A stretch of DNA of 64,000 bases, taken from sequence record NC_027395.1; one strand, 5' to 3'. Below the pieces are notes generated by a model, which worked only from the letters and a program-made list of their open reading frames with translations, ran no database searches and was not told the DNA's origin. Made by a program: the position numbers and the translations under genes. Shown piece after piece: positions 55,290-57,399 of the stretch (position 1 is the first letter of the stretch; every line of letters starts with the position of its first letter). This stretch comes from Escherichia phage vB_EcoP_SU10.

Positions 55290-57311
55290 TTAACCTCTAT
55301 TCAATGAACATTTAGGGGAATTACAATAAACTTGATTCATAGAACCAAGCGTACAACTTTCAGCATCGCGCCACGGAATCTGCTTAAAACACTCTGAGCA
55401 GTAGCCGAGGGTTGACCACATGGCTTTGGTGAAGTCAGTGCTTCGGTTTCCGTCGAAGCTGACAACAGTTTTGCGGAGAGTTGTTCGTGATTCAGGAAAC
55501 ACACCTGCTTTCTCAGCAGGTTCCTCCTTTTTTGGCTTAGTTGAGATTGCAAAAATACTGTTGCTACGTTTCTCAACATAAGCATCAACAACATCCTCCA
55601 GAGTGATGCCTGTCTGTTTCGCTGAGGAAGGTAATACAGTCATACGACCGATCATATCTTCAGTTACACGTAAAGCAAATTCAGGACGACGGGCGTTTGT
55701 TGTATCTGTTGCTTTAATCCAGATATAACCATCTTTGATCGTAGCATTAGATACTTTCTTCTTTACTTCTACAGCGCAGACTTTACAGATATCTTCACCA
55801 CGAAGACGACTGAGTTCCTCATCAAACTCATTCTCTGTTTTAACTTCACCACAGATTTCACAAACACCAATAGGAGTCTCCTCCTCTTCTTCCTCTTTAG
55901 GTTTAGTCAAACCTTCCAGACATTCAGGATGCCAGTAGCACTGATATGCGAAGACTGCTTTAGGTGCATCCTTCCAATCAATGTGCTTATCACAACCACC
56001 ACAATCGCCATGAGAGTGTGCTTCCCAGAATTTACGAGTGATAGTAACACCATTCTTGTTGACGAAACTATCATTCATATCAAAAGGGATATCATCATCA
56101 AAGTCAGCAGTAGTAGACTCAGGCTCCTTTTTCTCCAGAGATGGGTCAACAAAACGACCTGCTGTGATCACTAAGCGAACCATAGCATTAACTTCGGAGA
56201 TGCAGGATACTGTCCCACGGTAAACAATTTTAGGGTCTTTCAGGGCATCCTGATAAGCCTTAATGTCTACGTTATGAACATCACCTTCGATATACTCTTG
56301 AGACTTCTCATCGTAGATATAACCAATCATCTTACCACGAGAAGGAACAGCACCAGCAGTTGCATAAGGAACAAACTCATGCGGAGTGATTTCCACAGTC
56401 ATATCTCGGCGAATGTCAATGTTTCGATCGCTTGCGATTTTGTTTTGACTTACCACTGCGTTTCTTCGACGAACGTCTGCCGCTGTCACTCCCGGCTTCG
56501 TGTCGTAAGGATTGCTTGTATTGCTTTTTGAGGAACTTTGATAGTTGCTTTGGCTGTAGTTGTTCGAGTAATAACTGCCCCAACGATTGGCTACCGTAAA
56601 AACCGGAAGCTCGTGGGCGACCTCTTCAACCAGAGTCATGCTGTTGTTTGACATATCAAAGATATATTCTGTACCAACTTTACATTCAAAATGCTCATCA
56701 ATACGGTTCTTGTGAGATCTAGAACGCTTCAGAATCCACATCAACATGTCTTCTTCAGAAGCACCAAACCAATCTCTGTTACAACGTGCGAGGTGGAATG
56801 GACGCTCTTCGTTACGGATGATATGAAGACGGTTATCAGAAGCATCATGCCAGATTAAGGTGAAAGCACCATCCAGCTTTTGAATAGTCTCTGCTGCACC
56901 AATAGTGTTAATAGAGTGGCAGATGTTCTCACTGTCTACCTCGAAGTTTTTGCTGTCAGGTAACAGATCTTGGTCCATCAAGGTTCCATTATGAACCAGA
57001 GTGATGTTACCATGTTGGAAAGGATGGGCGTTCTTGGCGTTAACTGCACCTTTCGTTGCATGACGACTGTGACCAACAATCCATGAAGGTGCTACAGTGT
57101 AAGCTGTTTCACCAGTGGTGTGCTTCTTGTACTCATCTTGTAGGATGAATGCGAAAGAAGGAAGAGCTTCTTTATAAGTGAAGACTTCCTTAGTACTTTT
57201 ACGCTGACCAAAGATACCGGAGGAATGTTGTCCTCGGAATACTCCAGCATAAAAGAGTTGGTTAAATACGTCTAAATCAGTGCTTGACAGATTACCGCCA
57301 GCTAATACGAT
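55290..57311 (-). CDS. Class II (Ntn) glutamine amidotransferase fused to Zn-ribbon-rich C-terminal region; proposed ATT start
   Basis: In-frame region upstream of track start encodes (M)CGIVLAGG, RGQHSSG, GHSRHATKGAVNAKNAHP, HNGTL; AGGTGG RBS 8 nt before ATT; stop TAG immediately upstream. Confidence 0.7.
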   Translation of the reverse strand: MVLAGGNLSSTDLDVFNQLFYAGVFRGQHSSGIFGQRKSTKEVFTYKEALPSFAFILQDEYKKHTTGETAYTVAPSWIVGHSRHATKGAVNAKNAHPFQHGNITLVHNGTLMDQDLLPDSKNFEVDSENICHSINTIGAAETIQKLDGAFTLIWHDASDNRLHIIRNEERPFHLARCNRDWFGASEEDMLMWILKRSRSHKNRIDEHFECKVGTEYIFDMSNNSMTLVEEVAHELPVFTVANRWGSYYSNNYSQSNYQSSSKSNTSNPYDTKPGVTAADVRRRNAVVSQNKIASDRNIDIRRDMTVEITPHEFVPYATAGAVPSRGKMIGYIYDEKSQEYIEGDVHNVDIKAYQDALKDPKIVYRGTVSCISEVNAMVRLVITAGRFVDPSLEKKEPESTTADFDDDIPFDMNDSFVNKNGVTITRKFWEAHSHGDCGGCDKHIDWKDAPKAVFAYQCYWHPECLEGLTKPKEEEEEETPIGVCEICGEVKTENEFDEELSRLRGEDICKVCAVEVKKKVSNATIKDGYIWIKATDTTNARRPEFALRVTEDMIGRMTVLPSSAKQTGITLEDVVDAYVEKRSNSIFAISTKPKKEEPAEKAGVFPESRTTLRKTVVSFDGNRSTDFTKAMWSTLGYCSECFKQIPWRDAESCTLGSMNQVYCNSPKCSLNRG

Positions 57312-57399
57312 GCCACAAATTTTCTAATCCACCTGAAGGGTAAACCCTTTCATCTAATTAACCTTTAAATTGTGCCCCTTTGTCAGAGGCACCCATTGA

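Follow-up and report, generated by a model that had tools for sequence, protein, structure and literature searches.

Class II glutamine amidotransferases depend on a cysteine that is the first residue of the mature protein; the active site is made up of the thiol and the free amino group of this residue. In some of these enzymes, such as PurF from Bacillus subtilis, this residue is exposed by cleavage of a propeptide. AUU is a weak initiation codon that is discriminated against by IF3, as described for infC and pcnB, and at which formylmethionine (fMet) is placed by the initiator tRNA. In the case of Escherichia coli pcnB, which encodes poly(A) polymerase I, this rare start keeps down the amount of an enzyme that may be harmful. 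Here, we report on a gene that touches on both subjects, the glutamine amidotransferase gene carried on the minus strand of Escherichia phage vB_EcoP_SU10 (NC_027395.1), which we analysed within a stretch of 64,000 nucleotides (nt), hereafter referred to as the window. We propose, with a probability of about 0.8, that this gene is translated from an AUU codon at 57320-57318, directly before the codon of its catalytic cysteine.

The closest described system is phi32_83 of phage phiEco32. It is the same gene, with 98% nucleotide identity and a coding sequence (CDS) of 2031 nt that is annotated from the same ATT, and no sequence-level difference sets the two apart. More broadly, positions 55000-57700 of the window match phiEco32-like podophages (Kuravirus, Gordonclarkvirinae) at 97-99% identity. 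The encoded protein has in common with GlmS a class II glutaminase domain at its N-terminus, in which Cys1, the Arg of GH(S/N)R, NAHP and HNG are all recognised; it differs from GlmS by lacking the sugar isomerase (SIS) domain and by its gene context, as amidoligases and ATP-grasp ligases are encoded nearby. The maturation of B. subtilis PurF has the same requirement, a cysteine at position 1 of the final enzyme, but a propeptide would here need readthrough of a UAG codon. Since only AAA and ATT stand between this stop and the Cys codon, removal of the Met after initiation at AUU would be a simpler route than a propeptide. The phage gene would share a rare AUU start with pcnB and differs from it by a strongly conserved leader that contains an upstream open reading frame (uORF). 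Finally, the site resembles that of infC, where the AUU codon is also preceded by a Shine-Dalgarno (SD) sequence and by an upstream open reading frame (ORF) whose stop codon lies 3 nt before the AUU (UAA GGU AUU in infC, UAG AAA AUU here; PMC3592434). In thrS-infC reporters, translation was attributed in about equal parts to reinitiation and to de novo initiation (PMC3592434). The phage locus departs from infC in that the upstream ORF is a mini-ORF of nine codons and not a full-length gene, and in that the product is no translation factor and has no obvious autoregulatory loop.

The initiation codon of the amidotransferase gene

The full-length CDS occupies 55290..57320 on the minus strand, from ATT to TAA (2031 nt, 676 codons), and is homologous to phi32_83. 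Read from the Cys codon, the protein counts 675 residues and begins with CGIVLAGG. In a Pfam scan it matches GATase_6 over residues 75-175 (E=1e-14, 55 bits for a cut-off of 27) and GATase_7 (27.4 bits for a cut-off of 25), and PDB profiles of the glutaminase domains of GlmS (1xff) and PurF match over the GHxRxAT...NAHP...HNG region. These glutaminase-domain matches lie within approximately the first 200 residues. Cys1 and the glutamine-site motifs GHxR, NAHPF, HNG and VDSE are invariant in aligned relatives: C1-G2-I3-V4 do not vary in a 9-sequence alignment (A1), nor do C1 and G2 in a 32-sequence alignment (A3), and a Cys codon stands at this position in the distinct homologues that were scored. 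An earlier reading of the DNA from its letters alone, hereafter the sequence-only reading, had proposed that initiation at ATT gives M-C-G-I-V, as at the start of GlmS/PurF-type enzymes, and the GATase_6/GATase_7 and GlmS/PurF profile matches and the invariance of Cys1 agree with this. Judged by its sequence, the gene product is a phi32_83-type class II (N-terminal nucleophile, Ntn) glutamine amidotransferase.

Around the start, the minus strand reads ...GATGAAAGGGTTTACCCTTCAGGTGGATTAGAAAATTTGTGGCATCGTA... or, divided into codons, ...TTAATTAG ATG AAA GGG TTT ACC CTT CAG GTG GAT TAG AAA ATT TGT GGC ATC GTA.... The TGT codon at 57317-57315 encodes the catalytic cysteine, which would become residue 1 after removal of the initiator Met. 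It is preceded by ATT (57320-57318), AAA (57323-57321) and an in-frame TAG (57326-57324). No ATG, GTG or TTG is found between this TAG and Cys1; AAA and ATT are the only codons in the interval, as the sequence-only reading had pointed out. The SD sequence AGGTGGA lies at 57328..57334. Its AGGTGG hexamer (57334-57329) stands 8 nt from ATT, the distance given before, and GGTGGA 7 nt from it. The upstream amidoligase gene has the same GGTGGATT / GGTGGA motif before its ATG, at a similar spacing. Altogether, the elements of the start region that had been described previously are all present in the order and at the spacing given, and only their coordinates, uniformly 9 nt too low, had to be corrected. 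The AUU-UGU-GG sequence (57313-57320, minus strand) also holds an out-of-frame UUG (+2) and GUG (+4) that open ORFs of 8 and 4 codons, respectively.

The longest ORF with a canonical start begins at TTG 56981 (56979..56981, minus strand), as had been stated. This TTG, the first canonical in-frame start, lies 112 codons downstream of the Cys codon. The in-frame codons above it do encode the N-terminus of the amidotransferase, in agreement with the Pfam and PDB profile matches, and their number had been slightly underestimated (110 instead of 112). One may suppose that these 112 codons are not translated and that the protein starts at TTG 56981 or at a similar internal codon, or that ATT is a sequencing error or a pseudogenising mutation. 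Gene callers do choose such internal starts and many GenBank records are annotated in this way. Against this, the ratio of non-synonymous to synonymous substitution rates (dN/dS) is approximately 0.07 over the 112 codons, in comparison with KBNP1711 and with SU7, and synonymous sites are saturated. The codons that are lost in the canonical-start model are therefore under strong purifying selection. The catalytic Cys1, itself invariant, is encoded there, together with the Arg, Asn and His motifs. Furthermore, no SD sequence was found upstream of TTG 56981, and the position of the first canonical start changes from genus to genus (+112, +44, +9 and +4 codons). Because the same ATT was obtained in about 100 genomes that were sequenced independently, a sequencing error is excluded. 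We thus regard an internal canonical start as effectively refuted by the dN/dS ratio, the catalytic motifs, the missing SD and the invariance of ATT, and this whole set of explanations as hardly credible.

The conservation of the start region was followed with a 58-nt query that spans the uORF, the SD, ATT and the first codons. A 100% match to it is found in 67 phage records, and about 30 more match at 57/58 positions. The latter group includes Nieuwekanaalvirus and Suseptimavirus, which are only approximately 77-80% identical over the surrounding 751 nt. In the three of these records that were read (KBNP1711, ECBP2 and SU7), the single difference is a synonymous change in the Gly codon, GGC to GGT. 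ATT itself does not vary among the 97 phage records, and it is also the codon of six metagenome contigs and five IMG/VR genomes. In more distant relatives, the homologous codon is an ATG followed by TG(T/C)-GG. This is the case for Salmonella 7-11, Cronobacter GAP52, Vibrio Vp_R1, Aeromonas LAh_9 and Proteus Privateer, and also for Pseudoalteromonas HP1, Pseudomonas tf, a Bruynoghevirus, Escherichia PJNS034 and Vibrio Phriendly; Pseudomonas PA11 has TTG. The ATG of these distant relatives therefore marks this position as the site of initiation. The sequence-only reading had held that an ATG in related genomes would speak against the use of ATT. This did not prove to be so, as the ATG occurs only outside the clade in which ATT is invariant. 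Its central proposal, initiation at ATT, is in contrast supported by the absence of a canonical start, the dN/dS ratio, the SD, the invariance of ATT and the ATG at the homologous codon, and AUU initiation appears to be the only reading compatible with this evidence.

We can propose the following scheme for the synthesis of the enzyme. The GGUGGA sequence, 7 nt upstream, would position ribosomes on the AUU, directly before the catalytic cysteine. The fMet incorporated at this codon would then be removed by methionine aminopeptidase, since Cys is a permissive second residue, and Cys1 would be exposed. As AUU is weak and discriminated against by IF3, its use would keep the synthesis of the amidotransferase low or make it conditional.

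Start codons across the amidotransferase family

The anchored N-terminus of this family makes near-cognate starts visible. Two IMG/VR scans with N-domain profiles gave 118 distinct homologues (loci L011-L090 and L103-L182). The codon before Cys1 is ATG in 93 of them, ATT in 17 (including five in the phiEco32 clade), ATC in four and TTG in three, and neither GTG nor ATA occurs. The absence of ATA may come from the out-of-frame AUG that it would create (AUAUGU). Near-cognate starts outnumber GTG and TTG by 7 to 1. In E. coli, AUU starts are known for a handful of genes, and by this unmatched comparison the near-cognate share of the family is highly atypical.

At 18 of the 21 ATT/ATC loci, there is no ATG, GTG or TTG between Cys1 and the in-frame stop, which is located 1-19 codons upstream. 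The tips with ATT or ATC are scattered on a neighbour-joining tree, in line with several independent changes from ATG. Fitch parsimony counts up to about 14 switches, an approximate figure as the deep branches are poorly resolved. Two pairs of homologues (L088/L081 and L179/L164) reach BLOSUM62 similarity scores of 96-97% and yet carry ATT in one member and ATG in the other. The SD is slightly stronger at ATT/ATC loci (P=0.03). Its aligned spacing is of 7-8 nt in 18 of these 21 loci, in contrast to a broad distribution of 3-11 nt at ATG loci. Regarding tight adjacency to an upstream ORF, or the presence of mini-uORFs, the ATT-start homologues do not differ from those with ATG. If the recurrence of ATT and ATC holds true against a proper background, it would point to a constraint on enzyme dosage that was repeatedly solved via the start codon.

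Some loci of the family show further particularities. At L029 (1495-1506), the sequence ATG TGC TGT GGA (M-C-C-G-I-V) places two successive Cys codons after the start, and L041 and L141 have two near-cognate codons in succession (ATT ATC TG(T/C)). Whichever start codon is used in the family, an overlapping N-UG codon is set by its third base.

A conserved leader with an in-frame upstream reading frame

In the phiEco32 clade, the ATT codon is part of an ultra-conserved block of 68 nt (57301..57368, minus strand). Read from 57368 to 57301, this block comprises TTAAAGGTTAATTAG, the uORF with its candidate SD (AAGG), the SD of the amidotransferase gene, TAG AAA ATT and codons 1-6 of the CDS. It is identical at 67/68 positions to KBNP1711, ECBP2 and SU7, for which identity amounts to 58-69% in the 5′ flanks and 68-72% in the CDS downstream, and the excess of conservation over the flanks is significant in each of the three (binomial P = 3e-12 to 9e-10). 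The block is still identical at 58/68 positions in Aeromonas phage BUCT695, which belongs to the family Grimontviridae and whose flanks are only 38-44% identical. The conservation reaches the synonymous sites of codons 3-6 and is thus beyond the needs of an SD and a start codon. Moreover, a metagenome scan with a pattern leaving 15-45 nt free retrieved six contigs, in all of which the leader is identical. A search of the window at up to 3 mismatches gave no second copy of the leader. Neither this conservation nor the uORF, nor the recurrence of ATT and ATC in the family, had been noticed by the sequence-only reading.

The uORF (57324..57353, minus strand) encodes MKGFTLQVD*. Its ATG (57353-57351) is preceded by the AAGG candidate SD, 8 nt upstream, and its TAG lies 3 nt before ATT, in the same reading frame as the amidotransferase. 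It is unchanged in all Gordonclarkvirinae examined and becomes MKGLTLQAD* in BUCT695. In the latter, the core that extends from the start codon of the uORF to the Ile following Cys1-Gly2 has two substitutions, one in the loop of a hairpin and the other at the central U of the SD. This hairpin (hairpin A, AAGGG-TTTA-CCCTT, or AAGGG-UUUA-CCCUU in the RNA; 57336..57349, minus strand) is located inside the uORF and corresponds to the small hairpin that had been reported next to the SD. An alternative hairpin B, GGUUUACC/GGUGGAUU (57346-57326, minus strand), would sequester the SD. Hairpins A and B are mutually exclusive, with energies of -5.3 and -6.1 kcal/mol, respectively, and the minimum free energy (MFE) fold uses B. 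In BUCT695, hairpin A stays at -5.3 kcal/mol and hairpin B falls to -2.3 kcal/mol. The MFE fold also pairs the region of the uORF AUG (GAUG) with codons 2-3 (the C of GGC and AUC), and GUUAAU with AUUAGC in codons 4-6, so that its extent roughly equals the edges of the conserved block. An Rfam scan at E<=10 gave no match for the leader, the best scores being of 16-17 bits for gathering scores of 44-70.

As the uORF and the amidotransferase share a reading frame and are both invariant, translation could in principle start at the AUG of the uORF (57353-57351), read through the UAG and produce a propeptide of 12 residues (MKGFTLQVD-X-KI) that would be autocleaved to expose Cys1. The maturation of B. 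subtilis PurF mentioned above is an established precedent for such a cleavage, and amber suppressors are present in common laboratory K-12 strains. In hosts devoid of suppressors, readthrough is however very low. TAG also ends at least one well-supported gene in the window and is thus an ordinary stop there, and no tRNA gene was found in the window, so that no suppressor tRNA is encoded by it. Recoding of TAG, or its suppression by a tRNA from the window, is rejected on these two grounds. In addition, 13 of the 16 other ATT/ATC-start homologues are without any in-frame upstream canonical start, which means that readthrough is not a general solution, and the distant relatives simply have ATG-Cys. 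We consequently give this possibility very little credence and retain initiation at AUU.

A different question is whether, with AUU as the start, the uORF takes part in initiation at all. It could be incidental, the AUU being reached by de novo SD-directed initiation only and the block being frozen for another reason, such as service as the operator of a translational repressor protein (the enzyme itself, in an autoregulation, or a partner) or as an antisense element or an element acting at the DNA level. The extent of the conservation described above, including the synonymous sites of codons 3-6, fits with this proposal, and mini-uORFs are not enriched in other ATT-start lineages. On the plus strand, antisense to the amidotransferase gene, we also observed a sigma70-like promoter (TTGACA-16-TACGAT, 57284-57311, 10/12 matches) that would start near the ATT and Cys codons and transcribe across the leader. 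The -10 element of this promoter is inside the conserved block. Its -35 element has diverged in part in other genera (TTGAGA in KBNP1711), and this lack of conservation, seen in alignment A2, argues against an antisense role. The absence of an Rfam family also speaks against the proposal. On the sense strand, no sigma70 promoter was found at the leader and no phiEco32 gp36-type promoter (TAATGTATA, consensus taken from PMC8948821) was found near it within 1 mismatch. Finally, an ATG-initiated uORF with a candidate SD and a stop codon 3 nt before AUU is an arrangement known to support reinitiation (PMC3592434). Altogether, we consider it unlikely that the uORF is incidental and the block an operator or an antisense element.

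The reading that we favour for the leader is that the uORF truly contributes, by passing terminating ribosomes on to the AUU, which we hold to be a serious possibility, if somewhat short of an even chance. Termination-reinitiation from the uORF would then supplement de novo initiation directed by the SD, and hairpins A and B may modulate the access to this SD. The frozen 68 nt would in this case reflect overlapping constraints on the start codon and SD of the uORF, the hairpins, the SD of the amidotransferase gene, the stop codon and the AUU. At the scale of the family, we further suggest, tentatively, that near-cognate AUU and AUC starts are recurrent and selected, and that in the phiEco32 lineage the AUU has been locked in a uORF-containing leader that would make synthesis dependent on coupling and/or on the IF3 status of the infected cell.

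Several points weigh against this scheme, or against parts of it. In reporters, expression from AUU is about 6-8-fold below that from AUG (PMC3592434). The out-of-frame UUG (+2) and GUG (+4) could compete with AUU for SD-bound ribosomes, and the SD of BUCT695 is weaker (GGCGGA). The argument for a role of the uORF is one of geometry and conservation only, and the link between mini-uORFs and ATT is not clear in the family once the phiEco32 clade is counted once. In BUCT695, each of the two core substitutions changes an amino acid of the uORF (F to L and V to A), so that selection appears to act on the nucleotides and not on the uORF peptide. The folds of the leader are weak (z = -1.5 to -2.0), and as the leader is invariant, no covariation signal is possible.

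The comparison with distant relatives also gives some indications on the origin of the leader. In Cronobacter phage GAP52 (L008, 1188-1215), the region reads TAGATGAAAGGAtttttagtATGTGT, with GAAAGGA as SD. The 5′ part of the phiEco32 leader (TTAGATGAAAGGG; window 57320-57357) resembles such a GAP52-like ancestral SD region, and about 30 extra nt, with a direct ATTAGA repeat on both sides, are found between this region and ATT. These extra nt and their flanking repeat suggest that the leader arose by insertion or duplication. In BUCT695 (L005, 1300-1500), approximately 200 nt separate the ligase gene from the leader and contain an apparently degraded HNH-endonuclease-like fragment (…GDCWLWTGCINSDGYPK…). 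Apart from the leader, BUCT695 and the coliphages have no strongly conserved non-coding piece in common.

Well-supported natural AUU starts are few, and the combination of an invariant leader, an infC-like uORF and E. coli as a host offers a convenient system. The phage leader could thus serve to study near-cognate initiation, reinitiation and IF3 discrimination during infection.

Public annotations and gene neighbourhood

The ATT start itself is, on the basis of sequence annotations, already known. In the GenBank record EU330206 (2008), phi32_83 is a 'glutamine amidotransferase' (ABY52884.1) whose CDS begins with ATT (L001, 1881-3911, where 1881 is the A of ATT), and the CDS of the BASEL phage Bas91 is annotated from the same codon. 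Five further records have a CDS over the start. The annotation was not propagated to most genomes: of the 48 full-length phage records listed among the matches to the 58-nt query, only 6 have a CDS that covers the true start. The sequence-only reading had anticipated that automated annotation would truncate the gene, and this is what is observed, either because no CDS covers the start, as in most records, or because the annotated start is too late and Cys1 is lost. This start is a GTG 44 codons downstream in KBNP1711 (L003, 1456), an ATG 9 codons downstream in SU7 (L004, 1353) and an ATG 10 codons downstream in BUCT695 (L005, 1584). Conversely, Privateer is annotated from a TTG 13 codons too far upstream (L006, 1177), and an ATG-TGT with an AAGGA SD is present at 1216 of the same locus. 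As far as could be searched, what is new comprises the in-frame uORF with its infC-like geometry, the extreme degree to which the leader is conserved and the recurrent use of ATT and ATC starts in the family. We found no paper discussing or testing the phiEco32-type ATT start in the searchable literature, which did not include the primary phiEco32 papers of 2008 and 2012.

The protein was detected in SU10 preparations with nine peptides and a mass of 63.8 kDa (PMC4281155). These nine peptides indicate that the amidotransferase is made (PMC4281155). The mass given there would correspond to the TTG-truncated model, and the supplements of the study contain no peptide lists (PMC4281155). Most public genomes of the group appear to carry a truncated model without the catalytic cysteine, and some name it GlmS. 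The product name GlmS, or L-glutamine-D-fructose-6-phosphate aminotransferase, is common in the records and is unsupported, because no SIS domain was found in the 675-aa protein, in which a Pfam scan at E<=0.01 detected only GATase families. Such truncated models are misleading for functional and comparative work on a conserved early cluster that comprises amidoligase, amidotransferase and ATP-grasp ligases.

The amidotransferase gene is flanked on one side by an Amidoligase_2 gene (57400-58503) and on the other by small ORFs and then an ATP-grasp-like gene. Together they form a conserved cluster on the minus strand (53644-59117), in which the latter gene (53644-54846) encodes a protein with a weak similarity to D-Ala-D-Ala ligases and ATP-grasp enzymes. 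In relatives, the cluster also has genes for a 'COOH-NH2 ligase' and a gamma-glutamyl cyclotransferase, and it looks like a pathway that forms peptide or amide bonds. No Pfam family matches the approximately 450 C-terminal residues of the amidotransferase (window 55290-56660, minus strand). They carry several CxxC pairs, such as CGGC, CEICG, CKVC and CSEC.

Finally, a terminator-like hairpin, GTGCCTCT-GACAA-AGGGGCAC (57372..57392, minus strand), is located between the stop codon of the amidoligase gene (57402-57400) and the leader. In ECBP2 and SU7 its stem is GCGCTCT/AGGGCGC, with a compensatory change from T-A to C-G and the loss of one pair, and this compensatory change argues that the stem is under selection. 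The T-run that follows the hairpin is short (AATTT), and one public record has a terminator annotated beneath the region that matches it.

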